NCBI RefSeq assembly: GCF_030719035.1
Contig: NZ_CP132203.1
Coordinates: 1,454,579-1,494,578 of the forward strand
Reading direction: 5' to 3'
Length of the DNA: 40,000 nucleotides
Origin: Hahella sp. HNIBRBA332
GTDB taxonomy: Bacteria > Pseudomonadota > Gammaproteobacteria > Pseudomonadales > Oleiphilaceae
Within the stretch, counting starts at the first letter, position 1. Every line of letters begins with the position of its first letter. Positions 1 through 25,667 of the stretch are shown piece by piece. Below the pieces are notes generated by a model. It had not been told where the DNA came from. It was given only the letters and a program-made list of their open reading frames with translations, and ran no database searches. The position numbers and the translations under genes are program-made.

Positions 1-100
1 GGGCGGGGCTCGGAAACCCGGCTGAAACGTGCTCCAAAAACAACGGGAGTAAACGCCTGCGCATCCTTGCACCGCTGCGACCAAGTAGCGATACGCGCAT
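1..100 (-). CDS. umuD: UmuD-like SOS mutagenesis protein (LexA/S24 peptidase family), first 33 codons only; gene runs off the left edge
   Basis: Own minus-strand translation from ATG at 100-98: MRVSLLGRSGARMRRRLLPLFLEHVSAGFPSPA. The PLF...GFPSPA block matches the conserved UmuD N-terminus (E. coli ...FPLFSDLVQCGFPSPAADY, recalled from memory). GAGG at 109-106; LexA box 25 nt upstream. Absent from the ORF track because the window truncates it. Confidence 0.6.
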   Translation of the reverse strand, partial: MRVSLLGRSGARMRRRLLPLFLEHVSAGFPSPA

Positions 101-124
101 TGTGACCTCTAAAATGACAAAATA

Positions 125-144
125 TACTGTATAAAAATACAGTA
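125..144. promoter_or_regulatory. LexA (SOS) operator
   Basis: TACTGTATAAAAATACAGTA: palindromic CTGT-N8-ACAG matching the gammaproteobacterial SOS-box consensus. It overlaps the -10 of the leftward promoter. Confidence 0.85.
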
Positions 145-161
145 TCCCTCTGACGTGTCAA
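134..161 (-). promoter_or_regulatory. sigma70-type promoter of the umuD-like gene
   Basis: Minus strand reads TTGACA (161-156), 16-nt spacer, TATTTT (139-134). The -10 lies inside the LexA box. Confidence 0.5.
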
Positions 162-185: not shown

Positions 186-401
186 AAGTGGCATGGTTTA
201 ACGATGGTTCAATAATCTAGTGGCTATACTTAAGGTGGTAATGAGATCGCATACGAATTTGCATATGAACACTCAATGTTACTCGTGACTCAGGTTGTTT
301 GGATTTTTTGGGCTTTTTTAAATGGAATCAATAGATTGGAGGAAGTGACTTCGGAGTTGTGAGCTTAATAAACGCGCATGCGGGATATACAAATGTTAAG
401 T
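186..401 (+). repeat. L-repeat copy 1 (modular non-coding upstream repeat) ending in GTTAAGT
   Basis: 221-268 aligns to 5459-5505 (GGCTATACTT..TAATGAG.T..ATACGAATNTGCATA). 300-390 aligns to 25775-25856 (TGGAATCA..TGGAGG..CTTCG.AGT..AACGCGCATGCGNGATATA). Similarity to copy 3 stops at the GTT of GTTAAGT (395-401). Confidence 0.6.
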
Positions 402-445
402 TTCTCAATAAAGAATGATCCTGCCCACAAAGATTAGACACGTCA

Positions 446-1312
446 TTAAGCGACTTTCGATGCTTCATAACTCTCTGGGCTGAGATAGCCATTTGCGCTA
501 TGAAGGCGGATTCGATTGTAATCCACTTCGATATACTCAAACACGGCTTCACGCATTTCTTGTCGGGTTGCGTACCGCTCTCCGTGAATCGCTTCCACTT
601 TCAGGGAGTGAAAGAAGCTTTCCACACAGGCATTGTCATAGCAATTGCCTTTGCCGCTCATGCTGCAACGAAGCCCATGCGCCTGAATCAACGTCTGATA
701 GGCTTCTGAGCAATATTGGGAACCTCGATCTGAATGGACGATCACCCCTTTGGGCTGACGTCGACGCCACAACGCCATGCGCAAGGCGTCGCAGACCAGC
801 TCCGATTTCATTCGCTTGCTCATCGCCCAGCCTATGACTTTACGGCTGAACAGGTCCAGCACGACGGCTAGATACAGCCAACCTTCTTCCGTCCACAAAT
901 AGGTGATGTCACCCGCCCATTTTTGATTTATCTCCGTTGCATTAAAGTCCTGCTGAAGAAGGTTTTCCGCCACAGGCAGGCTATGCCTGGAGTGAGTGGT
1001 GGCCTTAAACTTTCTGGCGGCTTTCGCTCTCAAGCCCAAGCGTTGCATGCTTCTGGCCACCGTTTTACGGTTAGCCTGGACTCCCTGTTGCGCCAAGTCT
1101 TTGGTCAGCCGGGGCGCCCCATTACGCTTTTTAGCTTTATCAAAAGCGGCCCCAACTTGGATGTCCAGGGATTGCTGACGCTGTCGTCGCAGAGAAGGGG
1201 CTTTCTGTCGATGGAGCCAAACGTAGTAGCCGCTTCTTGAGACCTGAAGCGCTCTCGCCATGCAAGTGACGCGGAAAAGGCTCGTGTGAGAGTGCATAAA
1301 GGCGTACCTCAC
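446..1312 (-). CDS. IS3-family transposase OrfB (DDE integrase core), presumably expressed as an OrfAB frameshift fusion
   Basis: 288 aa with the rve-type motifs [17 protein letters not shown] and [11 protein letters not shown]. It lies in the -1 frame relative to orfA. Confidence 0.9.
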   Translation of the reverse strand: MRYAFMHSHTSLFRVTCMARALQVSRSGYYVWLHRQKAPSLRRQRQQSLDIQVGAAFDKAKKRNGAPRLTKDLAQQGVQANRKTVARSMQRLGLRAKAARKFKATTHSRHSLPVAENLLQQDFNATEINQKWAGDITYLWTEEGWLYLAVVLDLFSRKVIGWAMSKRMKSELVCDALRMALWRRRQPKGVIVHSDRGSQYCSEAYQTLIQAHGLRCSMSGKGNCYDNACVESFFHSLKVEAIHGERYATRQEMREAVFEYIEVDYNRIRLHSANGYLSPESYEASKVA

Positions 1313-1608
1313 TTCACACTTTTGGCGAAGTACGCCGCCGCTTTTTTTAACACGGCAAGCTCTTCCGCCTGTTCAGCCAACTGACGCTTCAGGCGGGCGT
1401 TTTCCTGGGCCAGTTGCTGTTCCGTTTCGCCACGATCCTGCGCCAGTCGGGCTTTACTGCGCCAATTGTAAAGTTGTGACTCGTGCAGACCCAATTGCCT
1501 TGCGGCGTCGCTCACGCCGATACGTTGAGCTAGCGCCAGGGCTTCCGCCTTGTACTCGTCGGAATAACGTTGGCGAGATTTGGAATTTGATGTTTTCTGT
1601 TTGGTCAT
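1309..1608 (-). CDS. IS3-family transposase OrfA (HTH)
   Basis: 99 aa. Typical IS3 OrfA: HTH then leucine-zipper-like ...ENARLKRQLAEQAEELAVLKKAAAYFAK. It overlaps orfB. Confidence 0.9.
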   Translation of the reverse strand: MTKQKTSNSKSRQRYSDEYKAEALALAQRIGVSDAARQLGLHESQLYNWRSKARLAQDRGETEQQLAQENARLKRQLAEQAEELAVLKKAAAYFAKSVK

Positions 1609-1695
1609 AGTTCACCTCTGTAGCGTAGTTTACTCGCTTAACGGGGTGTCTATCATTGGTGGGTAGGATCAGAAGCACTCAATTTAGGAGCGAAC

Positions 1696-1911
1696 ATGTC
1701 AGAAGTGAATGTATATGAGCAGGCTCTAGTAGCCGTATTAAACGAAGCCAAGTCGATGGGTGTTGAAATAGATAAGTTGTTTGAGAATGTAAGTGCTGGA
1801 ATTATGGGGAATAAACCATACGTGTTGGTTGATTCTACGCATAAAGCAGACGTTATAGATGTTCTTAGAAAAGCAGTCAATAAGCTTGAGTCACGCCACG
1901 CAGAAACTTAA
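1696..1911 (+). CDS. hypothetical small protein (71 aa)
   Basis: ORF track. GGAG 8 nt upstream of the ATG. AT-rich. The IS copy sits in its upstream region. Confidence 0.5.
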   Translation: MSEVNVYEQALVAVLNEAKSMGVEIDKLFENVSAGIMGNKPYVLVDSTHKADVIDVLRKAVNKLESRHAET

Positions 1912-3325: not shown

Positions 3326-3380
3326 TGTAATAAATTAAATCCTAATGATGCCTGGCGGCGAACGTATTTTAGTGTTTAGT

Positions 3381-3440
3381 ACGGTTTTTCGTGAATGAGA
3401 TAGTTCGAGCCTTTAGGGTTTGTACACTGGAATCATTAAA
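3381..3440 (+). repeat. L-repeat copy 2 (short form)
   Basis: ACGGTTTTTCGTGAATGAGATAGTT...GGGTTTGTACACTGGAATCA aligns to 25743-25797. It lies directly upstream of the lipoprotein ORF. Confidence 0.55.
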
Positions 3441-3445: not shown

Positions 3446-3751
3446 ATGAAAACAAAAATAGCCCCAATTTTTCTAATTGTCATGCTCGCTGTGCTTCTTT
3501 ATGGATGTGGCGATAAATGTAGCAGCTATTCAGATTTCTCCTGTAGTGAAATAGAAAACGCTACATATAACGCTTTCTTCTATTTTCCAAACAATAATGA
3601 ATATTATCTTGGTGTGGCACACGGCCTTAGTCAGTGTGGTTCTATGGCGCATAGTTTTGCTTCATCTAAAAACCTTACTGGTAATCGAGAGTGGGGCTAT
3701 ATTTGTTGTATGAAAGTAAAAGGATCAGAATGCTACGAAAAGCACAGGTAA
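3446..3751 (+). CDS. Cys-rich putative lipoprotein (101 aa)
   Basis: Signal peptide plus lipobox (LLYGC). Eight further cysteines in the mature part. Confidence 0.6.
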   Translation: MKTKIAPIFLIVMLAVLLYGCGDKCSSYSDFSCSEIENATYNAFFYFPNNNEYYLGVAHGLSQCGSMAHSFASSKNLTGNREWGYICCMKVKGSECYEKHR

Positions 3752-5314: not shown

Positions 5315-5458
5315 GTGTTTTAGAGGGCCGCTCGCCGTTGCATGGAGAGGGGGTAACTCGGCCCATTCAGGAAGGATCATGACACCAGAACACGTAGTAC
5401 CTACACCGGGAGTTCAACTTCACTTATCTGATCGCTCTATGCTTTAGCATCAATATAG

Positions 5459-5505
5459 AGGCTATACTTTTGTGATAATGAGGTGTATACGAATGTGCAT
5501 ACGGG
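5459..5505 (+). repeat. L-repeat partial copy (5' module only)
   Basis: GGCTATACTTTTGTGATAATGAGGTGTATACGAATGTGCATAC aligns to 221-266. It contains an extended -10-like TGTGATAAT and lies 30 nt upstream of ORF 5537. Confidence 0.5.
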
Positions 5506-5536
5506 TATGTGAAAAATAGAAGGGTGAGGTGTCATC

Positions 5537-6067
5537 ATGGGGCCAAGTGCATTCATTATATTTGAAAATAAGCCATCGAGTGAGAATTCGTCACAGTTGG
5601 AAGAAGCTCTGATCGAACTAGGGCATGACATCGAATTTGGATTTATCTATCCGGGCGATGAATATTGGTGTTACGAGGAAGACGAGCTTGAATTGATTAA
5701 AGAAAAAACTTCCATGTCTGTATGTGGAGTATTTGAAATATCTTGCCCAAGCAATTCTGCTAGTTCTCATCGAGATTTGGGGCAAGCTGCACTCATCGCT
5801 TGCGAATACCTCTCTGGTCTAGTTGATTTTAATGGGGCTATTATCCCTGAGCTGCCTCGCATAATGTATAAAGGTATGTGGCTTTGGGAAAAAGCTAATT
5901 GGGCAGATGTTGAACCTTATTTTTTAGAAATGGTTAAAGAAATTAGTGGTAAGGTCTACACAATCGAATATGAAACTGCAAATAATAGAATCTGGGCTCA
6001 TCACATTTGTGACAAGGAATTTATGGCTAATTGGCTTAAGCATCCCATGTTTAGAATGATAAAATGA
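5537..6067 (+). CDS. hypothetical protein (176 aa)
   Basis: ORF track. GGTGAGG upstream of the ATG. AT-rich module lying between the duplicated terminator elements. Confidence 0.55.
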   Translation: MGPSAFIIFENKPSSENSSQLEEALIELGHDIEFGFIYPGDEYWCYEEDELELIKEKTSMSVCGVFEISCPSNSASSHRDLGQAALIACEYLSGLVDFNGAIIPELPRIMYKGMWLWEKANWADVEPYFLEMVKEISGKVYTIEYETANNRIWAHHICDKEFMANWLKHPMFRMIK

Positions 6068-6277: not shown

Positions 6278-6670
6278 ATGCAAAACATGAGCTTCTACTT
6301 AGGAAAGCGCTCCAAGTCGCGCTTGGTTGGCCTGCATCCTGACCTTGTGAAAGTAATAGAGAGAGCGATTCAGATCAGCCCTATCGATTTCACTGTGCTG
6401 GAAGGCCTGAGAACTATCGAGCGCCAAAAGGAACTGTATAAGGCTAGCAAATCAAAGACGATGCGCAGCCGCCATTTAACGGGGCATGCGGTGGATCTGG
6501 GTGTTTTGATTAACGGGGCGATCACCTGGGAAACCCGCTATTACCAGATACTCGCCGACGCTGTTAAGCAAGCCGCCGAAGGGCTGGGCATTCCCATAGA
6601 GTGGGGCGGCGACTTCAACGGCTTTTTCGACGGACCTCATTATCAACTGCCGTGGAAAGAATACCCATGA
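6278..6670 (+). CDS. phage endolysin, peptidase M15 family (zinc D,D- or L-Ala-D-Glu peptidase type)
   Basis: 130 aa. Zn-ligand motifs SRHLTGHAVD and DGPHYQ. First gene of the lysis cassette. Confidence 0.8.
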   Translation: MQNMSFYLGKRSKSRLVGLHPDLVKVIERAIQISPIDFTVLEGLRTIERQKELYKASKSKTMRSRHLTGHAVDLGVLINGAITWETRYYQILADAVKQAAEGLGIPIEWGGDFNGFFDGPHYQLPWKEYP

Positions 6671-7071
6671 GCGCCTGGGCTTCAATTCTGAACCTGTTTA
6701 AACCCGTCGCAGATCTGATAGACAACGTCCACACCAGCGACGAAGAGCGCCTGCAGATACAGGCACAGCTATTTCAGATTCAGGCCGAGCTAACCCAGCG
6801 AGTGATGGAATACGAAACCAAGCTGCTGGAGGCGAAGGCCAGAACGATCCAAGCGGAAGCGCAAGGCCAAAGCATCCTACAGCGCAACTGGCGCCCGCTA
6901 ACCATGCTGTGTTTTCTGGCGCTGGTCGTGTGTGACTCCTTTGGCCTGCTGACGTTCCGGCTAAGCGTGGAAGCCTGGGATCTGCTGCAAATAGGCTTAG
7001 GTGGATATGTCGCCGGCAGATCGCTGGAGAAGATCGCCCCCAAGGTAACCGACGTGATGAGTAAGAAATAA
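6667..7071 (+). CDS. holin, 3TM type (GTA_holin_3TM-like)
   Basis: ATGA start/stop overlap with the endolysin at 6667-6670 (track start 6601 trimmed). HTSDEER motif, coiled segment, then WRP plus C-terminal TM helices, as recalled for that family. Confidence 0.65.
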   Translation: MSAWASILNLFKPVADLIDNVHTSDEERLQIQAQLFQIQAELTQRVMEYETKLLEAKARTIQAEAQGQSILQRNWRPLTMLCFLALVVCDSFGLLTFRLSVEAWDLLQIGLGGYVAGRSLEKIAPKVTDVMSKK

Positions 7072-7349
7072 TGGAAGAGAACCAAACCACCCGGAGGCAC
7101 TGGCACTTGGACAAAACCATCAGTGTGGGCCACCTGATCAGCACGCTGGTAATCGCCATTTCCGTGATCACCTGGGCGGGCTCCATAGATCGCCGTGTGG
7201 AGCAAAACGCGCTGGCGGTTAAGTACCTGAATGAAGAGCAAGTGCAACAGCGTCAGCGTATCGACTCCGTCCGCAATGAGATTAAAACCGACCTGCGAGC
7301 CATCAACGACAAGCTAGACCGCCTGATCGAGCGGCAGAGTGAACGGTAA
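7071..7349 (+). CDS. lysis-cassette membrane protein (N-terminal TM plus coiled coil; spanin-like by position)
   Basis: 92 aa. One TM (LISTLVIAISVITWAG) followed by a heptad-like region. Start overlaps the holin stop. Confidence 0.35.
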   Translation: MEENQTTRRHWHLDKTISVGHLISTLVIAISVITWAGSIDRRVEQNALAVKYLNEEQVQQRQRIDSVRNEIKTDLRAINDKLDRLIERQSER

Positions 7350-7774
7350 TGCCCAAGGCATCGCTAAGGCCCTGCAAAGATAAGGGCTGTCCCAATACGA
7401 CCCGGCACAAATCCCGATACTGTGAGAACCACGCAGACAAACGGGAGGCGACACGCTGGGGAGTCTGGCAACAACTGAAGGGCAGCGACACCCAACGCGG
7501 TTATGGTTGGCAATGGCGCAAGATTAGAGCGCGGATATTGCGGCGGGATAACTACCTGTGTCAGGTGTGTTTAAAGGCGGGGCGAACAAGTGCGGCCACA
7601 GAGGTGGATCACATCAAGCCCAAGGCGAAAGGAGGAGGTGACCGGGAGGAAAATTTGCAGGGAATTTGTAGGGCTTGTCATCTCTTGAAATCTGTAAGCC
7701 AGATCTTGATAGCCGTTATTTCTCAAACTGTAAGCCTGACCACATGGAAATCGATGAGGGTAAAGCGAGCCTAA
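7349..7774 (+). CDS. phage HNH endonuclease with a replaced 3' end
   Basis: EVDHIKPKAKGG...NLQGICRACH is the HNH core. After codon His at 7679-7681 the sequence turns AT-rich and the tail (LLKSVSQILIAV...) is not HNH-like. The expected tail is found at 9376-9408. Confidence 0.75.
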   Translation: MPKASLRPCKDKGCPNTTRHKSRYCENHADKREATRWGVWQQLKGSDTQRGYGWQWRKIRARILRRDNYLCQVCLKAGRTSAATEVDHIKPKAKGGGDREENLQGICRACHLLKSVSQILIAVISQTVSLTTWKSMRVKRA

Positions 7775-7807
7775 AATCCGACTCTACGCATATTCCTCAG
7801 TATATAG

Positions 7808-7861
7808 GTAAGCAATAGGGCCGTAGGAGCACTGGTAAAGCCATGCTTTTTTGCGTTATTT
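7808..7861 (+). repeat. attC-like hairpin upstream of the ABC permease gene
   Basis: GTAAGCAA...TTGCGTTATTT. TAAGCAA (7809-7815) pairs with TTGC(G)TTA (7851-7858) leaving one bulged G. The 3' end resembles the ..GGCGTTATATTTT ends of attC sites in the array. Confidence 0.3.
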
Positions 7862-7873
7862 TAAAGTCCACGG

Positions 7874-8635
7874 ATGTTACAGGATGAGAAAAAATTGAAG
7901 AAATGGATAACGAATAACTACAGGCTAAGTCGTTTATTTATCCTCGAACAGGTGCGTGAGCCTCTTACACTATTCTGGACTCTAATAGCTCCGCCGTTGC
8001 TATTTGTGTTTCTTAACCTTGATCCTCTTGTCTCCGGCGCAGCTACCACCGGATGGTATGAAGAACAAGCCTCTTGGTATCTAAGTTATTTGGCTCTCTC
8101 GGTCTCCTTGTTTGGGTTCGCATTGTACTTTGTAGGGAGGCGTGAAAGTGGATTTATAAAGTCATTCATTCAGGGTAAGGAAGCCAAGGCCCTTTTTTTA
8201 TCAGCGCAAATCAGCGCGTCTCTTCTGCTTTCGTGCTTTTGTTTTATTGTTTTCATAGTGATAACAACAGTTGCTTTTGGGGTGAGTCCCTTAGATGCTC
8301 TGACAAGGTTTGCGATACCATTCCTGATTATTATGGTTACATTCGTGTGGAGCGCTCTATTTATCTCGGTACTCCCATTAACTTTTATGAATGCTAATTC
8401 TGGCATCTCAATTTTTTTTATGGCATTGCTGATGTTCAGTATCGCTGGCTTCAAGGCAAATATACCGGCGCTTTCTTATCTCAACCTTTTCAATCCTCTG
8501 TCAATTGCAACTCAATTTATGGCAAGTGGCGGCCTACACAGCGTAGAGTCAATAGGAACCATTGCACTTATGACTGCCTTAGGTGGAGTTGGCTTAGTCC
8601 GTATGAAAACAAGCCCAACATGGAGCCGACAATGA
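7874..8635 (+). CDS. ABC-2 type transporter permease
   Basis: 253 aa with about 6 hydrophobic helices in an ABC-2 exporter-like layout. Stop overlaps the ATPase start (ATGA). Confidence 0.7.
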   Translation: MLQDEKKLKKWITNNYRLSRLFILEQVREPLTLFWTLIAPPLLFVFLNLDPLVSGAATTGWYEEQASWYLSYLALSVSLFGFALYFVGRRESGFIKSFIQGKEAKALFLSAQISASLLLSCFCFIVFIVITTVAFGVSPLDALTRFAIPFLIIMVTFVWSALFISVLPLTFMNANSGISIFFMALLMFSIAGFKANIPALSYLNLFNPLSIATQFMASGGLHSVESIGTIALMTALGGVGLVRMKTSPTWSRQ

Positions 8636-9354
8636 CCTCCACTGTAATTAGCGGGAACAATCTCACGTTCAAGTATTCGAAAAAGAGTGTTTTCAATAAT
8701 ATTTCATTTTCTTTCGAGAGTGGTTATGTGATTGGCCTGCTGGGTGAAAATGGCGCAGGAAAGACCACCCTGTTTGATTTGGTAAGTAGAGAGCTTGTCC
8801 CAACTAGCGGTGAGCTGACTTTTAATGTCGAGGCAGAAGCTATCGCCTATTTGCCCCAGATTGTTACGCTGCCCCCTTCGTTGCGAATAAAAGAAGTCCT
8901 GGAGATGATATCTTGCTTCCAGAACCGCGATATGGATCAGTCTGCGTCTGACATGGCTCGGTTATGGCCTGATCATATGCAACAGCGTTACAACGAGATT
9001 AAGGACCATCGTGCTGGCGTCTGTAGCTACGGAGAGAAGCGGTGGTTTGTGACCGCAGCAATGCTAGCTATATGTCAAAAGTCGATCTTTATTCTTGATG
9101 AGCCGACTGCAGGTGTAGATGTTCAATACCGCTATCTCATCTGGCAGCTCATTAAGGAGATGAAAAGAAGAGGATGCTCGATAATCGTTTCCTCGCACAT
9201 ACTGGACGAAATTGGCGCAAACACGGATTATTTTTATTTTCTCCAAAAGACGGGCATTCATAAGTTTAATGGCATGAAGGACTTCTTGGAGCGATTCAAC
9301 GCAAGTACTCCCGATGAAGCTTTCATAAAGGCGACTGTGCTTGAGGCAGGCTGA
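8632..9354 (+). CDS. ABC transporter ATP-binding protein
   Basis: Walker A GENGAGKTT, Q-loop YLPQ, degenerate signature SYGEKRW, Walker B FILDEPTAGVD, H-loop SSHIL. Start set at the ATG overlapping the permease stop (track start 8620 is also possible). Confidence 0.85.
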   Translation: MTSTVISGNNLTFKYSKKSVFNNISFSFESGYVIGLLGENGAGKTTLFDLVSRELVPTSGELTFNVEAEAIAYLPQIVTLPPSLRIKEVLEMISCFQNRDMDQSASDMARLWPDHMQQRYNEIKDHRAGVCSYGEKRWFVTAAMLAICQKSIFILDEPTAGVDVQYRYLIWQLIKEMKRRGCSIIVSSHILDEIGANTDYFYFLQKTGIHKFNGMKDFLERFNASTPDEAFIKATVLEAG

Positions 9355-9366
9355 TCGCTTGGTCAA

Positions 9367-9408
9367 GCTTTCCATCGAGACAAGACGTTGCTGGATGGCT
9401 CCAGATAA
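9367..9408 (+). pseudogene. displaced 3' end of the HNH gene
   Basis: Reads AFHRDKTLLDGSR-stop. Joining 7681 to 9376 gives ...CRACHRDKTLLDGSR-stop, a canonical CHxxKT HNH ending. The GC-rich phage composition resumes here. Confidence 0.55.
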
Positions 9409-9608
9409 CTGGCGTGTCAGTCTTAGGGGTAGTACCGAACGCACCATAGGGCACGCCACAGTGGCTAGGGTGTGGCAGATCAAAAAATGATCAAATATCG
9501 AAAATTGGAAGGGGCGGGGCGGGTCAAATTTCTGATATCTGAGCCACCAACACCGCACCCCTAAGTCTTTTTTTATACCCGCGAAATTAAAAATTTCAGG
9601 TTAACGCA

Positions 9609-10085
9609 ATGAGTGGAACCGCAACCAGAGCTGGAAGGGGGCGGAAGCCCAAGCCCGTTGCGCAAAAGCTCCTGGCCGGCAACCCCGGAAAGCGTCAACT
9701 TAACACCCACGAACCCCAGTTTTCCCAGATCACTAACATCGACTGCCCGGACTGGCTGGGCGATGACGCACGCCGCATGTGGGAGCTGATCGCCCCGGAG
9801 CTATGCGCGCAAAAGATCATCGCCATTACAGACGTGCATAACCTGGAAGCCTTCTGCGCCGCCTATGGTCGCTGGCGTCAGGCGGAAAGAGAACTGGCGC
9901 AATATGGCATCACTATTACGGACGCAAACGGCGGCCTGAAGAAAAACCCGGCGGCCACCGTCGCCAATGAATCCTTAAAACAACTGGCGACCTTCGGGGC
10001 GCTCCTGGGCCTGGACCCATCCAGTCGCCAACGTCTGACCGGCGGCGGCAACCACGACACGTCAAACCCCTTCGATAAATTCTGA
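9609..10085 (+). CDS. terS: phage terminase small subunit, P27 family
   Basis: 158 aa. [24 protein letters not shown]-terminus and ..[10 protein letters not shown].. are typical of P27-family TerS. Located between HNH and terL. Confidence 0.85.
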
Positions 10086-10099
10086 TTTTCGGTTATTCC

Positions 10100-11818
10100 A
10101 TGGCTGCTAAATATCCTCATGTCGAGGCGGCGACGCGGTACGCCCGCGCCGTGCTGGACGGGTCTATCCCTGCGTATCGGTACACGCGCTTGGCGTGCCA
10201 GCGTTACCTGGACGATCTCGCCCAGGAGAGCGACCCGGACTATCCGTATTACTTCGACAAGGCGGAGGCCGAGCGAGTGTGCGAGTTCGTCGAACTACTA
10301 CCGCACACCAAAGGCGAGTGGGCGTTCAAGCGTCAGCTTATCAAGCTGGAGCCCTGGCAGGTGTTCGGCTTCGTCAACATCTTCGGATGGAAGAGCAAGG
10401 CCGACGACCTGCGCCGCTTCCGCGAAGTCTATTGGTGCGTCCCGCGTAAGAACGGCAAGTCGATCATCGCCGCCGGCGTGGGGCTGTATATGTTCGCCTG
10501 CGATAACGAGTTTGGCGCCGAGGTCTACAGCGGCGCCACCAACGAGCGCCAAGCCTGGGAGGTATTCAGACCGGCCAAGCTGATGGTCTCCCGCACGCCT
10601 CTACTTCAGAAAGCAAAAGGGATCGCGGTCAATGCAAAGAACTTAAATCGCCCGGCGGATGAAGCGCGCTTTGAGCCGGTCATCGGTAAGCCCGGCGATG
10701 GCGCGAGTCCGTCCTGTGCGCTGATCGATGAGTACCACGAACACGACGCCCCCGACTTATACGAGACCATGGTGACGGGGCAGGGCGCACGCCGGCAGCC
10801 GCTGACGTTTATTATCACCACCGCCGGTAACAACATCGAAGGCCCTTGCTACGACAAGCAGACCGAGGCGCAAGAGATGCTGGACGGCGTCGCACCGAAT
10901 GACGAGCTGTTCGCGCTGATGTATGGCGTGGATGATCCGGAGCGCTGGGCGGACCCGGACGTATTGGCGATGGCCAATCCGAATCTGGGCGTCAGTGTGT
11001 ACAAAAAATACCTGGAGAGCCAGCAACAGAAGGCGATTCGCAGCGCCCGCTTTCAGAACATATTCAAAATTAAACACCTGAATATATGGGTTACCGCCCG
11101 CAGCGCCTTTTTCAATATGGAACAGTGGGGCAAATGCTTTGACCCCAGCATGAGCGTGGAAGACTTCGAAGGCCAAGAGTGTATCGGCGGCCTCGACTTG
11201 GCCGGCAAACTCGACCTTAACGCTTTCATCAAGCTGTTCTACCGCGACCTGATGGACGAGGACGGAAGAACCCGCCGGCATTACTACTGCCTCTCGCCCG
11301 TGTTCTGGGCGCCCGAGGATACGGTTAACAACCCGGACAACCGCAAGCTATCCAGTCGCTATCAGAAGTGGGTCAACCTGGGGGCGCTCACCGCCACCGA
11401 TGGCGCGGAAGTGGACTATCTGGAAGTGTTGGCGGAAGTCACCGACACCAACCAACGCCATCCTATTGCGGAGATCGGCATCGATCCACACGGCGCGCTG
11501 AACCTGTCGCACCGCCTGGACGACGAGAACCTGAACCCGGTGCAGATCACGCAGAACTATTCCGGTATGTCCGCCGGCATGAAAGAGCTTGAAGCGGCCA
11601 TCGCGGCCGGGCGTTTTCATCATGACGGCCATCCGATTTTAACCTGGTGTATGGGCAACGTAGTCGGACGCTACATGGGCGGCGCCGATGACGACATCGT
11701 TCGCCCAACCAAGGAACACAAAGACAAAAAAATCGACGGCGCGGTTGCGCTCATCATGGCCGTGGGCCGCGCTATGTTGGCGGCGGAAACCACCGGCCCC
11801 AGCATAAGGTTTGCCTGA
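10100..11818 (+). CDS. terL: phage terminase large subunit
   Basis: 572 aa. Walker A-like [14 protein letters not shown] (Walker B), and a C-terminal nuclease region with DGAVALIMA. Synteny. Confidence 0.9.
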
Positions 11819-13023
11819 TGTTCTCCATTTTCAAACGTAAGAACGCCGCCGTCATCGACAGCTCGGCCAAGCTCGCGGAGTTGCTGGGCGCATGGTATGA
11901 CGCCGACGCCGGCGTACAGATCACTCCTGGCAACGCTCCAGAGATCAGCGCCGTGTTTTCCTGCATCAAAGTCCTAACCGAGTCTATCGGCATGCTGCCG
12001 CTGAACCTCTTCAAAGAGCTGCCCGGCGGCGGTTCGGAAAAGGCGTCTAACCACCCGCTGCAGGCGCTGTTAAAGCACGGACCGAACGACTATCTGACCG
12101 ATCAGGAATTTAAAGAACTGATCGTCGCGCACCTGTGCTTACGCGGTAACCATTACAGCTACATCAACCGCACGGCGTCGGGCCGGGTGCTGGAGTTGCT
12201 GCCGATGGCGCCGGATGCGGTGACGCCGAAACTTTCCAACGACTACGAACTGACCTATGACGTGCAGTTTAAAAGCGGCCCTGTGCGCACGCTGCCGGCG
12301 GAGGAGGTGTTGCATATCCGCTTATGGAGCCAGGACGGTTTAACAGGACTGAACCCGATTCAATACAACCGCCACTGCCTGGGGCTGGCCAAGGCGACGG
12401 AAAAGCACGGCTCCACGCTGTTCGCCCATGGCGCGAAACCCTCCGGCGTGCTCTCCACTGATCACGCGCTGACAGACAAGCAATACGAGCGGCTGAAACA
12501 GGAGATGGAGCTGCACCGCGGCGTCGCCAATCAGAACCGCGAGATGATCCTCGATGGCGGCTTGAAGTGGCTGCAGGTCTCCATGACGGCGGAAGACAGC
12601 CAGTTTTTAGAAACCCGCAAGTTTCAGCGCTCCGAGATCGCCGGCTTTTTCCGGGTGCCGCCGCACATGATCGGCGACCTGGAGCGGGCGACGTTTTCGA
12701 ATATCGAACATCAGGACTTGGCGTTTGTCCGGCACACACTGATTCCGTATTGCACACGCATCGAGAAGCGTATCAACAAGGCGCTGCTTACCGATAAAGA
12801 GCGCGCCAATTATTTCTCCAAGTTTGTAGTGAATGCCCTTATGCGCGGAGACATGAAGACCCGCAGCGAGTACTACACCGCCATGATTCAAAACGGCGTC
12901 ATGAGTCCGAACGAGGTCCGCATCCTGGAGGACATGAACCCCAGGGAAGGCGGCGATACCTATCTGACGCCGCTCAATATGGCGGTTAACGGCCAGCCTG
13001 CCGACGAGACGGAAACGAATTAA
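11818..13023 (+). CDS. phage portal protein, HK97 family
   Basis: 401 aa. Position after terL, and HK97-portal-like conserved stretches (EIAGFFRVPPHMIGD). Confidence 0.9.
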   Translation: MFSIFKRKNAAVIDSSAKLAELLGAWYDADAGVQITPGNAPEISAVFSCIKVLTESIGMLPLNLFKELPGGGSEKASNHPLQALLKHGPNDYLTDQEFKELIVAHLCLRGNHYSYINRTASGRVLELLPMAPDAVTPKLSNDYELTYDVQFKSGPVRTLPAEEVLHIRLWSQDGLTGLNPIQYNRHCLGLAKATEKHGSTLFAHGAKPSGVLSTDHALTDKQYERLKQEMELHRGVANQNREMILDGGLKWLQVSMTAEDSQFLETRKFQRSEIAGFFRVPPHMIGDLERATFSNIEHQDLAFVRHTLIPYCTRIEKRINKALLTDKERANYFSKFVVNALMRGDMKTRSEYYTAMIQNGVMSPNEVRILEDMNPREGGDTYLTPLNMAVNGQPADETETN

Positions 13024-13042
13024 GCAGCCATACGAGGCACGC

Positions 13043-13600
13043 ATGCACACCAAGCAAAAACTGGATATCCCATTAAAGATCAAGTCCCTGTCCGACACCG
13101 GTGAGTTCGAGGGGTACGGCTCCGTATTCGGGGTTAAAGACTCGTACAGCGACATTGTCGTCAAGGGCGCGTTTAACGCCTCTTTGGATCGCTGGAAACA
13201 ACAAGGCCGCCTGCCGGCGCTGTTATGGCAGCACCGCATGGACGAACCCATTGGCGTCTATACCGCCATGGAGGAAGACGAGCACGGCCTCAAGCTGTCC
13301 GGGCGTCTGCTGGTTGACGATGACCCGTTAGCCAGGCGCGCTTACGGGCACCTAAAAGCCGGCTCTATTTCCGGCCTCTCTATCGGGTATTCCGTCCCCA
13401 GTCATGGCGTGGAATACGACAGCGCCAAAGAGGCGTTCTTAATCAAAGAAATCGACTTGTGGGAAGTGTCCCTGGTGACCTTTCCCGCCAATGACGAGGC
13501 GCGCATTGCGCAAGTCAAACACCGCCAACGAAACGCCGAGCACGCACAAGCCCTGGCCGCTATTTCATCCCTAAAACATATATTCACCACAAGGAACTAA
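13043..13600 (+). CDS. prohead protease, HK97 family
   Basis: 185 aa. GEFEGYGSVFGVKDSYSDIVVKGAF and SIGY...EVSLVTFPAN motifs. Synteny. Confidence 0.85.
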   Translation: MHTKQKLDIPLKIKSLSDTGEFEGYGSVFGVKDSYSDIVVKGAFNASLDRWKQQGRLPALLWQHRMDEPIGVYTAMEEDEHGLKLSGRLLVDDDPLARRAYGHLKAGSISGLSIGYSVPSHGVEYDSAKEAFLIKEIDLWEVSLVTFPANDEARIAQVKHRQRNAEHAQALAAISSLKHIFTTRN

Positions 13601-13605
13601 CCCTG

Positions 13606-14799
13606 ATGCCAGTCGAATTAAAAGACATCCAAGACGTAGCGGAAGAACTGTCTAGCCGCTTCACGGAATTTAAATCAGCCAATGACTCCTCTATGGAGGC
13701 CACCCGCGCAGAGGTAATCAAGCTCACCGAAAAAACCGACAAGCTCAACGCCCAGCTTAGCGAACTGGAGGCCCTGAAAAAGGAGCTGGACGGCCTTTAT
13801 AAAAAGCAGAACCGCCCCGGAACGGTGGAAGGGGATGCGGAATACCGCAAACACTTTATCGACCAGTGGATGCGCAAGAACAACGCCGCCGGCATTGAAG
13901 CCAAGGCCGTCAACCTGGGCGCGAATCAGGACGGCGGCTTTGGCGTGCCGGAAGAGCTGGACCGTCAGATTTTGGAATTAGAGCGCGAGCTGTCTCCCAT
14001 GCGGGCGCTGTGCCGAAATATCCAGGTGTCCACGGATGGCTACAAGCGTCTCGTTAATCTGGGCGGCGCCGGTTCCGGCTGGGTGGGCGAGACCGACGCC
14101 CGCCCGGAAACCAACACACCCAAGCTGGCGCAGATTGAAGCCTTCATGGGGGAGATCTACGCCAACCCGGCCACGACCCAAAAGGCGCTGGACGATGTGT
14201 ATTTCAACGTCGAGCAGTGGATCGCCGACGAGGTGGCGCAAGAGTTCGTCGACCGTGAAGCCGACGCCTTTCTAAATGGCGATGGCGTGGGCAAACCGAA
14301 AGGCATCCTGGCTTACGCCATGGACACCGCCCCGGACGCCTCCCGCGAGTTCGGCAAGCTGCAACGAGTGATCAGCGGCAAGGCGGGCGACTTCACCGCG
14401 GATAACCTGCTAAGCGTGATCTACCGTCTCAAGAAAGCGTTTCGCCGCAACGCCAGCTGGATGATGACCGGAACCACGGTGGAGAAGGTGCGCAAGTTCA
14501 AGGACGCGGACGGTAACTACATGTGGCGTCCCGGCATCGAGGCGGGTCAGCCTTCGTTGCTGTTGGGCTACGGCATCGAGGAAAACGAGGACATGCCGGA
14601 AGTGGCGGCGGATGCTAACGCCATCTTGTTCGGCGACTTCATGCGCGGGTATTCGATTGTGGACCGCATCGGCGCACGCATGCTGCGCGATCCCTACACG
14701 CACAAACCCTTCGTTCACTTCTACACCACCAAGCGGGTGGGCGGCATGCTAGTAGACTCCAACGCAATCAAGGTGCTGACATTGAGTAAGGGGGCGTAA
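13606..14799 (+). CDS. major capsid protein, HK97 family
   Basis: 397 aa. N-terminal coiled delta-domain, then an HK97-fold-like region. Follows the protease. Confidence 0.9.
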   Translation: MPVELKDIQDVAEELSSRFTEFKSANDSSMEATRAEVIKLTEKTDKLNAQLSELEALKKELDGLYKKQNRPGTVEGDAEYRKHFIDQWMRKNNAAGIEAKAVNLGANQDGGFGVPEELDRQILELERELSPMRALCRNIQVSTDGYKRLVNLGGAGSGWVGETDARPETNTPKLAQIEAFMGEIYANPATTQKALDDVYFNVEQWIADEVAQEFVDREADAFLNGDGVGKPKGILAYAMDTAPDASREFGKLQRVISGKAGDFTADNLLSVIYRLKKAFRRNASWMMTGTTVEKVRKFKDADGNYMWRPGIEAGQPSLLLGYGIEENEDMPEVAADANAILFGDFMRGYSIVDRIGARMLRDPYTHKPFVHFYTTKRVGGMLVDSNAIKVLTLSKGA

Positions 14800-15086
14800 T
14801 GGCCCCCATCACCTTAGAGGAAGCCAAGCAGCATCTACGGGTTGAACACGAGGAAGAAGACGCCTACATCGAAACCCTGATCGCCGTAGCGCGCAATCTG
14901 GCGGAGGAATATTCCGGGCTTTCCCTGGAGGAGGGCGAGAGCATTCCCGAGCTGGCCAAACACGCCATAAAAATGATCATCGCTACCCTGTACGAACAAC
15001 GGGAGGACCAGACGGCGGCGACGGTCTCACAGGTGCCGCTGTGCTCCAAAGCGCTGCTGGACCTGCTGCGGATTCGGCGGCTATGA
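14799..15086 (+). CDS. head-tail connector / DNA-packaging (gp6-like) protein
   Basis: 95 aa. ITLEEAKQHLRV..ED..I..LI.AAR motif typical of this family. Synteny. Confidence 0.7.
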   Translation: MAPITLEEAKQHLRVEHEEEDAYIETLIAVARNLAEEYSGLSLEEGESIPELAKHAIKMIIATLYEQREDQTAATVSQVPLCSKALLDLLRIRRL

Positions 15087-15421
15087 GAGCGGGACGGTTA
15101 CGGCGGAGGGTGACGATTCAGGTTAATGACACGACTCAGGATGAATACGGCGAAACCGTGCAAGGCTGGCGAGATGTCGCTACGCGTTGGGCGGGCGTGG
15201 AGCCGCTGTCCGGTCGGGAGTTCCTGGCCGCCAGCGGCCCCCGCGCCGAGCTGACCACCCGCATTGTGCTGCGCTGGGAACCGGCGCTGGCTGGGCTCAC
15301 GTCCCAGGATCACCGGGCGATCTATCAGGGGCGCGTCTACGACATCCATTCCGCTATCAACACCCGCGAGGAAAACAAAGAGTGGGTGCTGATGTGCGCG
15401 GATACAGGGGGCTCATCATGA
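15083..15421 (+). CDS. head-tail adaptor (head closure) protein
   Basis: ATGA overlap with the upstream stop (track start 15041 trimmed). RVTIQ...DEYGE...W..V...WA.VEPLSGRE pattern of the SPP1 gp16/HK97 gp9-like family. Confidence 0.7.
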   Translation: MRAGRLRRRVTIQVNDTTQDEYGETVQGWRDVATRWAGVEPLSGREFLAASGPRAELTTRIVLRWEPALAGLTSQDHRAIYQGRVYDIHSAINTREENKEWVLMCADTGGSS

Positions 15422-15918
15422 GTAGCGGCGTTAAGATCAGCGGTTTGCGCGAGCTGCACCAAGCCTTACAGCAACTCGGCAAACAGGCGGCCAACAAGGC
15501 GGCGCGTGACGGGCTGGCCGAGGCGGCCAAAACGTTTAGGAAAGAGATCCGCCAAGGCGCGCCAGTTAAAAGCGGCCACCTGCGTAAGCACATCCGCTAC
15601 AAGCTTCGCAGGGATCGCAGTGGTCGCGGCTACACCGGTCGCGTGGGCGTGCATCCCAAAGCCTACTACGCCCGCTTTATTGAGTTTGGCGCGGCTCCGC
15701 ACGCCATCCCCAACCCGACTACCGGGCGCGGAAGAAACAAACGCAAAAACAAAAAGCGTCTGCGCATCGGTTCGCAGGTAGTGTCTGGCGTTAACCATCC
15801 CGGCATTGCCCCGCGTCCTTTCCTGCGCCCGGCTTTTCTGCGCGCCAAGGATGCGGCGGTCAAAGCCGCCGGCAAACGCATGTGGCATTCCATCATTCAA
15901 GCGAGGGCGCGCCGATGA
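15418..15918 (+). CDS. HK97 gp10-family tail-attachment protein
   Basis: ATGA overlap start (track start 15187 trimmed). ..PVKSGHLR.. and YYARFIEFG...PRPFLRPAF motifs. Confidence 0.7.
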   Translation: MSSGVKISGLRELHQALQQLGKQAANKAARDGLAEAAKTFRKEIRQGAPVKSGHLRKHIRYKLRRDRSGRGYTGRVGVHPKAYYARFIEFGAAPHAIPNPTTGRGRNKRKNKKRLRIGSQVVSGVNHPGIAPRPFLRPAFLRAKDAAVKAAGKRMWHSIIQARARR

Positions 15919-16289
15919 TTATCCCGCGATTGCTGAAGCGACTGCGTAAGGCGGATCAGGTTAGGGCGCTGATTCCGCCGTCGGCGATTCACGGACGCTT
16001 TCTACCGCCCCACGCAGCAACGCCGGCGCTATCTCTGCTGTATGTCGGCGACGATCCCGTCAACGACCTGGGGGGAGAGGATAACAGTCGCCGCGAACGG
16101 GCGCAGATCGACGCCTGGGCGCCGACGCTCAAGCAGGCGGACCAGTTAGCAAAGGCTGCGACGGCTGCATTGGCCCCACGCGGCCAAGACTTAATCGCCG
16201 TGCGCAACGGCAAAACTTACGAGTACGACGACGCGGCCCAGCTCCACCGGCTGATGCTGGATTATTCATTCACATTTTACGAGGACTGA
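15915..16289 (+). CDS. tail completion/terminator-like protein (DUF3168-like by position)
   Basis: ATGA overlap start (track start 15882 trimmed). 124 aa, located between gp10-like and tail tube genes. Confidence 0.45.
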   Translation: MIIPRLLKRLRKADQVRALIPPSAIHGRFLPPHAATPALSLLYVGDDPVNDLGGEDNSRRERAQIDAWAPTLKQADQLAKAATAALAPRGQDLIAVRNGKTYEYDDAAQLHRLMLDYSFTFYED

Positions 16290-16291
16290 CC

Positions 16292-16708
16292 ATGGCGAAA
16301 ATGCCCGCCGACGGAACCAAAATTGAAATCGACGGTACGACCGCTGGCGCGCCCGACATTGAGGTGACCGGAGTTAAATCCTTCTCTGGCTTTGACGGCG
16401 AACGTCCCGAAATCGACAACACGGACTTAAGCAGCGAGGCGTCCGAGTTCTTTCTCGGCAAGCGCGACTGGGGGAGCTTTAGCCTGGACTGGTTCATTAA
16501 CTATGGCGATCCCGGCCAGAACGAAGTCCGCGCCGCTGAGTTATCCGGGGCGCTGAAGACCGTCAAGATTACTTTTCCAGATTTAACCACCGCCACATTC
16601 AAGGCTTACGTCAAAAACGCAACCAGCCTTTCCGGCGGGATCAGCGGCATGCTGGAAGGCTCCGCCGCGCTACGCATCACCGGTAAACCTTCTTTCGCGA
16701 AACCCTAA
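16292..16708 (+). CDS. major tail (tube) protein
   Basis: 138 aa. Position immediately before the G/GT chaperone pair, and a beta-rich composition typical of small siphovirus tube proteins. Confidence 0.7.
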   Translation: MAKMPADGTKIEIDGTTAGAPDIEVTGVKSFSGFDGERPEIDNTDLSSEASEFFLGKRDWGSFSLDWFINYGDPGQNEVRAAELSGALKTVKITFPDLTTATFKAYVKNATSLSGGISGMLEGSAALRITGKPSFAKP

Positions 16709-16721
16709 ACGAGGAACCTTT

Positions 16722-17087
16722 ATGAGTTATTTAAACAAAGCCCAGATCCTGTCGGCGCAAGATATCGAATGCGTAGACGTAGACGTGCCGGAGTGGGGCG
16801 GGACCGTGCGAGTCGCCCTGATGAGCGGAGCCGCCCGCGATGATTACGAGGGCTCCCTGATTCGCTTGGCCGCGGATGGAACGGCGCAACGGGATCTGAC
16901 CAACATCCGCGCCAAGCTGGTGGCGGTCTGTCTGGTGGATGACAACGGCGAGCGCTTATTCAGCGAGAGCGACGTTAAAGCCCTGGGCGCGAAATCCTGC
17001 GCCGCCCTGGATCGCGTTTATCATGTCGCCGCCCGACTCAATCGCCTGACCCAAGGCGAAGTGGAGGACGCCGCAAAAAACTCCTAA
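16722..17087 (+). CDS. tail assembly chaperone G
   Basis: 121 aa. Precedes the tape measure gene and ends just after an A AAA AAC slippery heptamer. Confidence 0.75.
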   Translation: MSYLNKAQILSAQDIECVDVDVPEWGGTVRVALMSGAARDDYEGSLIRLAADGTAQRDLTNIRAKLVAVCLVDDNGERLFSESDVKALGAKSCAALDRVYHVAARLNRLTQGEVEDAAKNS

Positions 17088-17308
17088 GCCGGCCCGAGCG
17101 CCGGTTTTACTTCTACCTCGCCGCCAAGTTGGGCAAGACGGTTAAGGCCCTGCTGCAGGAGATCGACTCCGCCGAGCTGGCTGAGTGGATGGCTTACGAA
17201 TCCCTGGACGCCTACGCCGAGCAATTCGAACGTGAGCGCCAGAGCAGCGCAGAGCGGTCGGACGCACTTAAAAACCTCTTGTTCGGCGACGCCTGGCGCG
17301 ACGCCTAA
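16722..17308 (+). CDS. tail assembly chaperone GT (programmed -1 frameshift product)
   Basis: The -1 frame from 17081 is open to TAA at 17306-17308. It encodes ...RRFYFYLAAKLGKTVKALLQEIDSAELAEWMAY..., a gpT-like sequence. Confidence 0.65.
17075..17081 (+). promoter_or_regulatory. -1 ribosomal frameshift slippery site A AAA AAC
   Basis: X XXY YYZ heptamer in the zero frame of G (GCA AAA AAC), 4 nt before the G stop. Confidence 0.65.
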
Positions 17309-17341
17309 CCCTTCTATTTCATAATTCCTACAGGTTGGCAA

Positions 17342-19207
17342 ATGAGCCAAGAAATGATTGGCGCGTTGTCTATCGATCTGCGCCTTGCGACGGCCAAGAT
17401 CGAGGACGGGCTAAAAAGCGTCAACACCCATCTGGAGCGCACGGCGTCAGCGGCCAACAATGCCGGCAAGATGTTTTCTGTGCTGACCACTATCGCCACG
17501 GCGGGCGTGTTTGGCGGGGTCATCAAAGGCAGTCTGGACGCGGCCAATCACCTGGGCGACTTAAGCGTGCGCCTGGGCGTGAGCGTGGAAGGGTTGAGCC
17601 GTCTCGCCTACGCAGCGGAATTGTCGGGCGTATCCGCCGGCACGCTGGAAACCGGCCTGCAGCGCATGACGCGACGCATCGCCGAGGCGGCCGCCGGCAG
17701 CGGTGAAGCCATCGGCGCGATCAAAGCGCTGGGACTGTCCGCGCAGAAGCTCCAGCAACTGCGACCAGAACAGCAATTTGAAGTGCTGGCGGATGCTCTG
17801 GCGGAAGTGCCGGCGAAGTCGGACCGGGTCCGCCTCGCCATGAAACTGTTGGACTCCGAAGGTGTTGCACTATTACAGACGATGGAAGGCGGCAGCGCCG
17901 CTATTCGGGCCATGGGCGAAGAGTCCGACCGCATCGGCAATACCATCAGCACAAGCTTTGCGACCCAGGCCACCGCCGCCAATGCCGCCATAATCAAAAT
18001 GAACGCGGCGCTGACGGGCATGACCAACAACATGGCCGTGGCGTTGGGGCCGACCATCGAGCAAGTCGCCCACTTCATGGGGGATGTGCTCCCCGAGGCG
18101 GCCAAGCTGGGCGGGCAGGCGGTGCGGCTGCTCGCCGCCGGCGCGCTGGAGGTCAGCGCCAGCGTGATCGAGTTTATCCGGGTTGGAACCTACTACCTGG
18201 GCAAGCTCTCCGATGATGTGGCGAAAGTGGACGCTGAGCTTTACGCCATGCAGGAGAACCTACGCGGCGCCACGGGCGACATTTTCGCGGAGATGGAGGG
18301 GGCGAACAGGGAGACGGAAAAGTTCAAGGTGACGCTGGGCGAGAGCGTCGTCACCCTGCAGGACTACCAAGGCGTGACCGCCACCGTGGCGGACAACCTG
18401 CAACGCGTGAAGGCGGCCCAGGAGGAAGCCAACGCCGCATTGCAGCGTCAGAACGAAATACGCGGCAACGTCGAAAGCATCCGTGAATCCCTGCTGACCG
18501 AAGAGGAGGCGGAGCGGGAGTCGTACGAACGCCGACGGGACATGCTGCAGGAGGCGTTGGACGAAAGCCTGTTAACCCAAACGCAGCATATGGAGCTGTT
18601 GGGCGAACTGTCCGCGCAGCATCAAGCCACGCTCACAGCCATAGAGGAAAGAGAGAAGGGCAAGCGTAAAGCCCTGGCGGAGGCGGAGCATCAGGAGCGG
18701 GTGTCAGTCATGACCGGCATGCTGGGCAACCTCTCAACGCTCATGGATACCAAATCCAAGAAGCTGTTCGAGATCGGCAAAAAGGCGGCCATCGCCAACG
18801 CCTTAGTCTCTGGCTATGAAGCGGCGGTGCATTCCTATAACAAAGGCGCGCAAATTGGTGGCCCGATTGTGGGCGCGGCGTTCGCCGCCACGTCTGTAGT
18901 TGCTACGGCCGTGCAAATTCAAAAACTGAAGTCGCAGAAGTTTGGCGGAGGCGGAACCGTCAGCGCCGGCGGAGGAGGAGCGCCGCCCAACACCTACCAG
19001 CCGCCACAACCCACGATCCCCAGCGGGCCCGCCAGCGGCAAAGGCGAGGGCGCGCAGATCATTTTTCAGTTTAACGGCCCCGTGAATGGCGACCCCTACC
19101 TGATCGCCGACGCCATCGCGCCGCACCTGCGGGACATTGTCAGCAAGAAAGACATCGTTATTGTGGAAGCGAACAGCCGCAACGGCCAACAACTAAGAGG
19201 ACTGTAA
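17342..19207 (+). CDS. tail tape measure protein
   Basis: 621 aa. Ala/Gly-rich helical protein with a TMP-like N-terminal region. Follows G/GT. Confidence 0.9.
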   Translation: MSQEMIGALSIDLRLATAKIEDGLKSVNTHLERTASAANNAGKMFSVLTTIATAGVFGGVIKGSLDAANHLGDLSVRLGVSVEGLSRLAYAAELSGVSAGTLETGLQRMTRRIAEAAAGSGEAIGAIKALGLSAQKLQQLRPEQQFEVLADALAEVPAKSDRVRLAMKLLDSEGVALLQTMEGGSAAIRAMGEESDRIGNTISTSFATQATAANAAIIKMNAALTGMTNNMAVALGPTIEQVAHFMGDVLPEAAKLGGQAVRLLAAGALEVSASVIEFIRVGTYYLGKLSDDVAKVDAELYAMQENLRGATGDIFAEMEGANRETEKFKVTLGESVVTLQDYQGVTATVADNLQRVKAAQEEANAALQRQNEIRGNVESIRESLLTEEEAERESYERRRDMLQEALDESLLTQTQHMELLGELSAQHQATLTAIEEREKGKRKALAEAEHQERVSVMTGMLGNLSTLMDTKSKKLFEIGKKAAIANALVSGYEAAVHSYNKGAQIGGPIVGAAFAATSVVATAVQIQKLKSQKFGGGGTVSAGGGGAPPNTYQPPQPTIPSGPASGKGEGAQIIFQFNGPVNGDPYLIADAIAPHLRDIVSKKDIVIVEANSRNGQQLRGL

Positions 19208-19599: not shown

Positions 19600-19699
19600 G
19601 GGGGGTGTAATCTGGCAGTGTCAATGTGTGGCGTCTATATTTGTCACTTATCTACGCTGTTATGCGGAACTTTGTTTTAAATATTTGGGAGTAGAAGTA

Positions 19700-25571: not shown

Positions 25572-25667
25572 GGAGGGCACTCCTCCCCACCTCTGCGCAG
25601 TTTGAGTAAATGCCGAGTTTGTGAAATTGGGGTTAGGCTCTCAGCTTCAATGGAAACTGGTTCTGGA

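Follow-up and report, generated by a model that had tools for sequence, protein, structure and literature searches.

Minimal attI cores have been published for attI1 (AAACAAAGTTRRRY) and attI2 (AATAAAATGTTRRRY).(PMC12901181) In Vibrio cholerae, a single chromosomal platform with an active integrase has an intI promoter overlaid by an SOS box, and a regulatory spacer of a few hundred nucleotides between intI and attI that includes the cassette promoter Pc (Cambray et al. 2011, PMC3108266; Krin et al. 2014, PMC3948777). Partial attI sites with the 3' core, located away from the array head and downstream of ORFs, occur in the Delta-attI-type cassettes, of which the examples from mobile integrons keep 14–18 nt (244 nt in one type) and have been shown to recombine (PMC12901181). 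Clusters of attC sites lacking an integron integrase are referred to as CALINs and are defined without attI. As attI is unknown for most (chromosomal) integrons, software cannot search for it (Cury et al. 2016, PMC4889954). While this remains so, the origin of CALINs is left open.

Here, we describe a repeat of Hahella sp. HNIBRBA332 that very probably represents the platform of a chromosomal integron, i. e. the DNA between intI and the first cassette, which has been multiplied to about 14 copies per genome and orphaned by loss of intI. The copies are best understood as orphan attI heads of integrase-less cassette arrays and thus of CALINs. The analyzed stretch of 40,000 nt, in the following referred to as the window (G000:C1:1454579-1494578), is part of a host genome that consists of a single contig of 7.16 Mb. 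Judged by titles and abstract openings, a literature search for Hahella and integron retrieved no paper on a Hahella integron.

Like attI1 and attI2, the Hahella element lies between a divergent intI and the first cassette, ends at the G|TT of a GTTRRRY core and needs no hairpin. The corresponding Hahella sequence is ATACAAATGTTA, the last 14 nt of which, ATACAAATGTTRRRY, resemble the published minimal cores (PMC12901181); the likeness to the attI1 simple site, which a sequence-only reading of this DNA had pointed out, agrees with these cores. The sequence upstream of the simple site is unrelated, however. Instead of the direct repeats DR1/DR2, the Hahella element has a palindrome (CGCGCATGCGCG) and a distant inverted copy of the L-box region, and its roughly 14 copies per genome contrast with the lack of a functional cognate integrase in the genome. 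The V. cholerae platform is similar in its chromosomal location, the SOS box over the intI promoter and the length of the regulatory spacer. Yet, it is single and accompanied by an active integrase, whereas the Hahella platform is multiplied and orphaned. The arrays headed by Hahella copies, including the one at 28944-40000 of the window, have no nearby intI and resemble CALINs in this respect, but an attI and Pint region survives in recognizable form. Delta-attI-like are the 5'-truncated copies g2810191, g5721913, g3700673 and g52915. In contrast to the mobile-integron examples, these putative sites retain 75–160 nt, and some of them may be plain deletions. With the VCR-type attC families, the repeat shares its conservation, its restriction to one genus, its association with cassette arrays and the terminal GTTA. 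Unlike these, it lacks the covarying arms of an imperfect palindrome, does not occur between successive cassettes of the window array and continues into intI on its 5' side.

Anatomy of the repeat and its GTT junction

A profile HMM of the repeat built from 22 copies gave 19 matches in the 7.16-Mb genome, 14 of which reach the 3' end. Using BLAST, four to nine matches per genome were found in six of seven congeneric genomes, while 34 other genera sampled from the same family and order yielded none. Further copies in this genome and in relatives, which the sequence-only reading had proposed to look for, are thus plentiful. The four related non-coding segments that it had described in the window are all present, albeit with unequal support. 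Copy 1 (w1) is matched at 202-400 (E=1e-39) and copy 4 (w4) on the plus strand at 25661-25856 (E=4e-59). An internal platform fragment at 3380-3437 (plus strand, profile positions 84-141, E=2e-7) immediately precedes the ORF at 3446-3751, and a marginal fragment of the platform 5' part at 5448-5507 (plus strand, profile positions 22-81, E=0.2 genome-wide and weak alone), which specifically resembles the w1 variant, is located upstream of the ORF at 5537-6067 (DUF6368). The latter two segments (3381-3440 and 5459-5505) had been listed among the related segments; they turned out to be internal fragments that contain neither the 3' core nor a GTT junction. Directly in front of the fragment at 3380, the sequence at 3326-3371 (cctaaTgatgcctggcggcgaacgtAtttt) resembles a short attC whose two core boxes are mutated, from TAAC to TAAT and from GTTA to GTAT. 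Several copies are 5'-truncated and preceded by same-strand ORFs, and not all of them are classical 'head of array' sites.

In an alignment of 36 copies, nearly all finish with ...AACGCGCATGCGCGATATACAAATGTTA and then diverge. For the 28 copies from seven genomes that could be anchored on GTT, pairwise identity amounts to 81% at positions −20 to −1, 97% over GTTA and 30% at +4 to +24, with G, T and T being invariant. This confirms the abrupt loss of similarity right after GTT that had drawn attention to the repeat, and shows that it is not due to chance. The 26-nt 3' core, CGCGCATGCGCGATATACAAATGTTA, can be read as a candidate attI simple site consisting of an L box (GATATAC), a spacer (AAAT) and an R box (GTTRRRY); in its sequence, GATATAC-AAAT-GTTA fits the L-spacer-R pattern that two inversely oriented integrase-binding boxes would display. 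In copy 1, a divergent variant that extends on the plus strand from the Pint region at 143 to the G of the crossover G|TT (143-397), the corresponding core AACGCGCATGCGGGATATACAAATGTTA spans 371-398 with a putative L box GATATAC, spacer AAAT and R box GTTA(AGT). The GTT occupies 395-397, and the crossover is predicted to fall between G395 and T396.

Toward the cassettes, the platform is composed of a LexA box over the −10 element of the leftward intI promoter (Pint), a spacer of about 85 nt, a conserved stretch of about 200 nt and the core. Conservation among paralogues is uneven, as the conserved stretch holds three blocks with 82–88% identity that are separated by sequence with 69–75% identity. 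These blocks correspond to the shared modules from which the sequence-only reading had seen the segments assembled. A consensus promoter facing the cassettes (Pc) was sought in the platform and none matched. The core includes the above palindrome, which is perfect over 12 bp. Moreover, the L-box region has an inverted counterpart about 107 nt further upstream (GTGTATATGCGCA), the two regions being located at element positions ~62-80 and 180-200 (window 25722-25740 and 25840-25856). The inverted copy may be an accessory site for the integrase or for a regulator.

Mechanistically, an integron integrase would bind the double-stranded core site and recombine it, by strand exchange between G and TT, with a circular cassette whose attC is folded. 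The DNA left of the G would stay constant, while the right side would be whichever cassette was captured, and this proposed mechanism would explain the different DNA behind each copy. We infer binding of IntI by the core, past recombination at the copies and a cassette promoter Pc on the platform.

Integrase remnants in Hahella and intact integrases elsewhere

Using the integron-integrase model TIGR02249 (cut-off 265 bits), no intact intI was found in this genome, the best match scoring 87 bits; intI fragments immediately adjoin three of its platform copies. A working intI was found in none of the eight genomes of the genus examined. None exceeds the cut-off in G001, G003, G005, G006 and G007, the gene of G004 reaches 348 bits and contains a stop codon and a frameshift, and that of G002 is internally deleted. 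The latter two belong to a second, more distant lineage that is inactivated and not linked to the element. As none of these eight genomes yielded a working intI, present-day activity is doubtful.

At g58003, a divergent IntI of 81 amino acids has suffered an in-frame internal deletion that joined MDSPFLESVRREICLRGYSIRTEKTYF to RHSFATHLL...IYTHV, so that the N-terminal 27 amino acids are fused to box II with the region of the catalytic Tyr. This remnant begins about 115 nt upstream of the element behind the LexA box CTGTATAAAAATACAG and is transcribed away from the element; a leftward promoter that matches the consensus (TTGACT-16-TATTTT) points at it. The N-terminal intI remnants at G007:C89 and G005:C151 display the same geometry, and seven paralogous platform copies carry the same LexA box 83–85 nt upstream of element position 1. 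The remnants, their geometry and the LexA box beside the element therefore identify the latter as the intI-attI intergenic region.

Most Hahella platform copies have lost intI entirely. In addition to the in-frame internal deletion at g58003, the routes include frameshift and truncation (G007:C89), retention of nothing but C-terminal fragments (g6003711 and g6000474) and deletion of the ORF with retention of the LexA box (L048, L051, L053, L054, L056 and L057). Furthermore, intI was deleted together with Pint and the box at an 11-nt microhomology (GTTCTGGAAAG/GTTCTGAAAAG) in copy 4 of the window and in G003. Judging from these structures, intI was destroyed in at least five different ways, repeatedly and independently, while the attI heads were retained and rose in number to about 14 per genome. 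The recognizable attI and Pint module thus marks the CALINs of one genus as decapitated integrons.

On the left of several copies, there is an additional conserved segment of about 150 nt, the usual place of which is behind the stop codon of intI. In copy 4, this segment (25578-25670, plus strand) is fused straight to the platform and has a sharp left end (CACTCCTCCCCAC) after the stop of a phage tail gene at 25571. Further copies are located at 58558-58706, 6001208-6001355, 6004112-6004259 and 18978-19005 of the genome, and the left end (TCACTCCTCCCCACGCCTGCG) is likewise sharp with unrelated flanks in five copies. It may mark a copied unit; an inverted partner of the left end of this unit, TCACTCCTCCCCAC, was sought in the genome and none was found. 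Apart from the platforms, an intI-like N-terminal fragment with one in-frame stop (model positions 2-94) is present at G000:C1:5184044-5184322. It is conserved in G001, G003 and G006 and has no adjoining platform copy.

A species-level genome collection was searched with a degenerate pattern that represents the final 24 nt of the core. The pattern identified 39 loci, beyond Hahella in Porticoccus, Porticoccaceae, Gilvimarinus, Marinimicrobium, Cellvibrio, Idiomarina and others, and in nearly all of them similarity again ends after GTTA. Two matches (Eubacteriales and Gracilibacteria) look like chance. The core is found 272–334 nt upstream of a divergent full-length IntI in a member of the Porticoccaceae (L156), in Pseudomonadales AC1.3 (L148) and in Marinimicrobium (L128). 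Here, the TIGR02249 scores are 406 bits for L156 and 393 bits for L148, while the L128 integrase rests on an uninterrupted tblastn match of 313 amino acids. A fourth locus (L151) carries a partial IntI. The Hahella intI remnants share 60–90% amino acid identity with the integrases of these core-bearing genomes, which are their closest relatives, and 34–66% with ten IntI sampled from their own GTDB family. Upstream of these ten, seven lack an attI-like match, two have weak GTT motifs and one has a partial core. From the identity pattern and the distribution of the core, it follows that core and integrase clade travel together, as expected of a cognate attI.

With up to two mismatches, the core occurs in 14 of 301 genomes of the order, which represent 12 genera and harbor one or two copies each versus eight in this genome; the reversed pattern, searched as a control in the same 301 genomes, gave no match. 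Within the sampled part of the order, the 26-nt core is common to a single IntI clade in at least seven GTDB families; it lends itself to use in searches and as the substrate of recombination assays. Most of the non-Hahella core loci (L119-L157) have no intI within the surrounding 8 kb, and several genomes possess two or three copies. Orphan attI heads may therefore be common beyond Hahella. In the Porticoccaceae copies, a hairpin (GCCGAAT...ATTCGGC) is located just upstream of the core.

Cassettes behind the platforms and alternative explanations

A scan for attC-like motif pairs, for which the background was measured genome-wide, gave a total of 18 same-orientation matches in the 2.5-kb stretches behind the 14 core-bearing copies, compared with about three expected. 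At least one such match follows nine of the 14 copies, usually right behind the first ORF; the remaining five, including w1, have no recognizable attC within this distance. The stretch at 28944-40000 of the window contains more than 12 canonical attC sites and no intI, and qualifies as a CALIN. A first cassette is common to orthologous copies in two cases, i. e. w1 (G000 and G001) as well as g4406363 and its G001 counterpart. In contrast, heads of G001 and G003 that agree in their left flank are followed by different first cassettes and display differing intI deletions. The different cassettes on the same left flank therefore indicate some turnover after the platform was in place, whereas the shared first cassettes and the drifted w1 core in G001 both fit the status of relics. 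The attC sites seemingly upstream of g4406363 proved to be inside a fragment of an IS3-type transposase, and they do not place this copy in the middle of an array. With intI remnants adjoining the element, its core upstream of intact IntI elsewhere and attC-like cassettes behind it, the initial suspicion of an integron-type crossover and of attI-like sites has held up.

Three other identities have to be weighed against the orphaned platform. The sequence-only reading had considered an unusual long attC class, in which case the element would be a site of about 165 nt with R'' TAAC at element position ~50 and R' GTTA at its end that folds as single-stranded DNA and forms the 3' end of the preceding cassette. 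Some 5'-truncated copies indeed come after same-strand ORFs, and an imperfect 11-bp inverted repeat (GTATATGCGCA / TGCGC(G)ATATAC) together with TAAC/GTTA allows standard pairs in 92% of the cells across 22 copies. This complementarity is not accompanied by covariation above shuffles, however (0.126 versus 0.120, a value reached by 133 of 500 shuffles), and the RNAalifold consensus fold of the 22 copies is weak (−9.45 kcal/mol over 226 columns) and leaves TAAC unpaired with GTTA. Covariation and folding, proposed at the outset as a check, thus speak against such a site. Moreover, the R-L spacing differs between the arms (19 versus 8 nt), which is unlike attC, similarity runs past TAAC in the 5' direction and reaches the LexA box, Pint and the start of intI instead of meeting a cassette boundary at R'', and the canonical attC sites of the same arrays belong to a different family. 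A long attC is hence the least probable identity of the element. Hardly more credible is the view of the element as a mobile promoter or, at the RNA level, as a structured 5' leader that would spread before genes independently of integron recombination, as had also been contemplated. It would be in line with the invariable location upstream of an ORF that starts 10–25 nt after GTTA, with the internal fragments directly 5' of the ORFs at 3446 and 5537 and with the blocks of higher conservation. Yet, Rfam matches in the window are confined to two group II intron models with none for the element, and neither a conserved fold nor covariation nor a consensus promoter facing the cassettes was found. 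The sharp G|TT end, the linkage to intI and the downstream attC-like sites would not be expected of a leader either, and any promoter for the cassettes would belong to the platform and would not constitute a rival explanation.

Finally, the repeat could be the terminal part of another mobile element, such as a transposon, a phage end or an integrative element, with the ends ...CAAATGTTA and TCACTCCTCCCCAC... and intI as cargo. The sharp left boundary of the unit, beyond which five copies have unrelated flanks, the phage tail gene that abuts copy 4 and its orthologues, and the clustering of IS elements around the copies would be compatible with this proposal, which we consider improbable, if slightly less so than a leader. 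Neither an inverted nor a direct partner of the left end was found, and no transposase is linked to the unit. The supposed right end is an integron core site followed by attC-bearing cassettes, and the same core stands in single or double copy beside an intact intI in other families. Such an element could nevertheless account for the multiplication of the platform, leaving the identity of the repeat unchanged.

If the repeat is a multiplied and orphaned integron platform, as we favor, a further question is whether the copies have a role. It seems unlikely, though far from absurd, that they serve as distributed landing and expression sites for cassettes, a 'many-headed integron' retained because an integrase of the same clade on incoming DNA can supply it in trans. 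This proposal would include a new use of the bidirectional promoter region with its SOS box, for which the fusion of umuDC and platform at 127-161 is an example. If true, it would explain why conservation among paralogues is higher in the 3' core than around it, why the core is identical across several families and why the first cassettes behind orthologous heads differ between G001 and G003 despite differing intI deletions. Either way, the Hahella platforms extend the integron paradigm and do not change it.

The two platform copies of the window

At the left edge of the window, copy 1 is preceded by the 5' end of umuD (minus strand), the full protein of which scores 154 bits against the UmuD model NF007621. 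The LexA (SOS) box CTGTATAAAAATACAG at 127-142 separates the umuDC unit on the left from the integron platform on the right. A leftward sigma-70-like promoter, TTGACA-16 nt-TATTTT at 134-161 (minus strand, 10 of 12 consensus matches), is predicted to be the homologue of Pint with its −10 element in the SOS box, here driving umuD. The similarity of umuD paralogues to the window ends at 145, shortly behind the SOS box, while platform paralogues match from 143, just after the box, including the −35 element TTGACA at 156-161. As the umuD-side and platform-side matches meet at the SOS box, copy 1 is a chimera in which umuDC replaced intI at the LexA box, and thus exemplifies how SOS-regulated modules are swapped. 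The sequence-only reading had placed copy 1 behind the umuD promoter. An SOS box is indeed located there; this box is, however, shared with the Pint region of the platform. The −35 element of the umuD promoter lies within platform-derived DNA. The fusion (window 1-161) is common to G001 (G001:2719409-2719817).

The GTTAAG junction of copy 1 is genuine, as the IS3-family insertion sequence at 416-1669 (minus strand; orfA 1309-1608, orfB 446-1312) begins 15 nt further on, inside the leader of the first cassette. GAA is duplicated on its two sides (413-415 and 1670-1672). The orthologue of copy 1 in G001, which is 90% identical, is free of this insertion and reads on through the same first cassette with 86% identity over 844 nt; its core has drifted. 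The first ORF after copy 1 (1696-1911, plus strand) encodes 71 amino acids without family match, and its position is kept in G001. Behind the insertion, about 4.4 kb are occupied by AT-rich ORFs with few or no family matches. A phage late-gene block at 6278-25571, which encodes an endolysin, the terminase TerL, a portal protein, a capsid protein and a tail protein of 1756 amino acids ending at 25571, sits between the two platform copies. Their orthologues in G001 are separated by only about 9.9 kb, with a tail-gene remnant alone between them.

The similarity of copy 4 ends at 25856, where a second IS3-family element copy (25857-28943, plus strand) is inserted directly after GATATA; this element contains a group II intron (26625-28455) with a reverse transcriptase ORF (27136-28392). 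The break of copy 4, previously attributed to a crossover, is accordingly caused by the insertion at 25857, which leaves the core without its final 9 nt (CAAATGTTA). The cassette array with canonical attC sites (TAACAA...GGCGTTA; 28944-40000, plus strand) begins with GTTAGGG at 28944, its first ORF being located at 28963-29178. A continuation of 25856 at 28944 is plausible and not seamless, as the join lacks the CAAAT of the other copies as well as a target-site duplication. An inversion between the two inverted IS copies was considered as a possible source of this junction; the flanks give no matching duplications. The first cassette of the array had no match in five relatives.

The same IS3-family element is present in or beside three platform copies (window 416-1669 and 25857-28943; genome ~1499941), and another insertion interrupts the copies L045 and L047 of relatives at CAAAT. 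The repeated insertions may reflect a target preference or merely a tolerant region. At 1499826-1499941 of the genome, 5 kb past the end of the window, an inverted, IS-truncated platform copy heads an array of one cassette that runs head-on into the array of the window, which suggests an inversion or an IS-mediated rearrangement.
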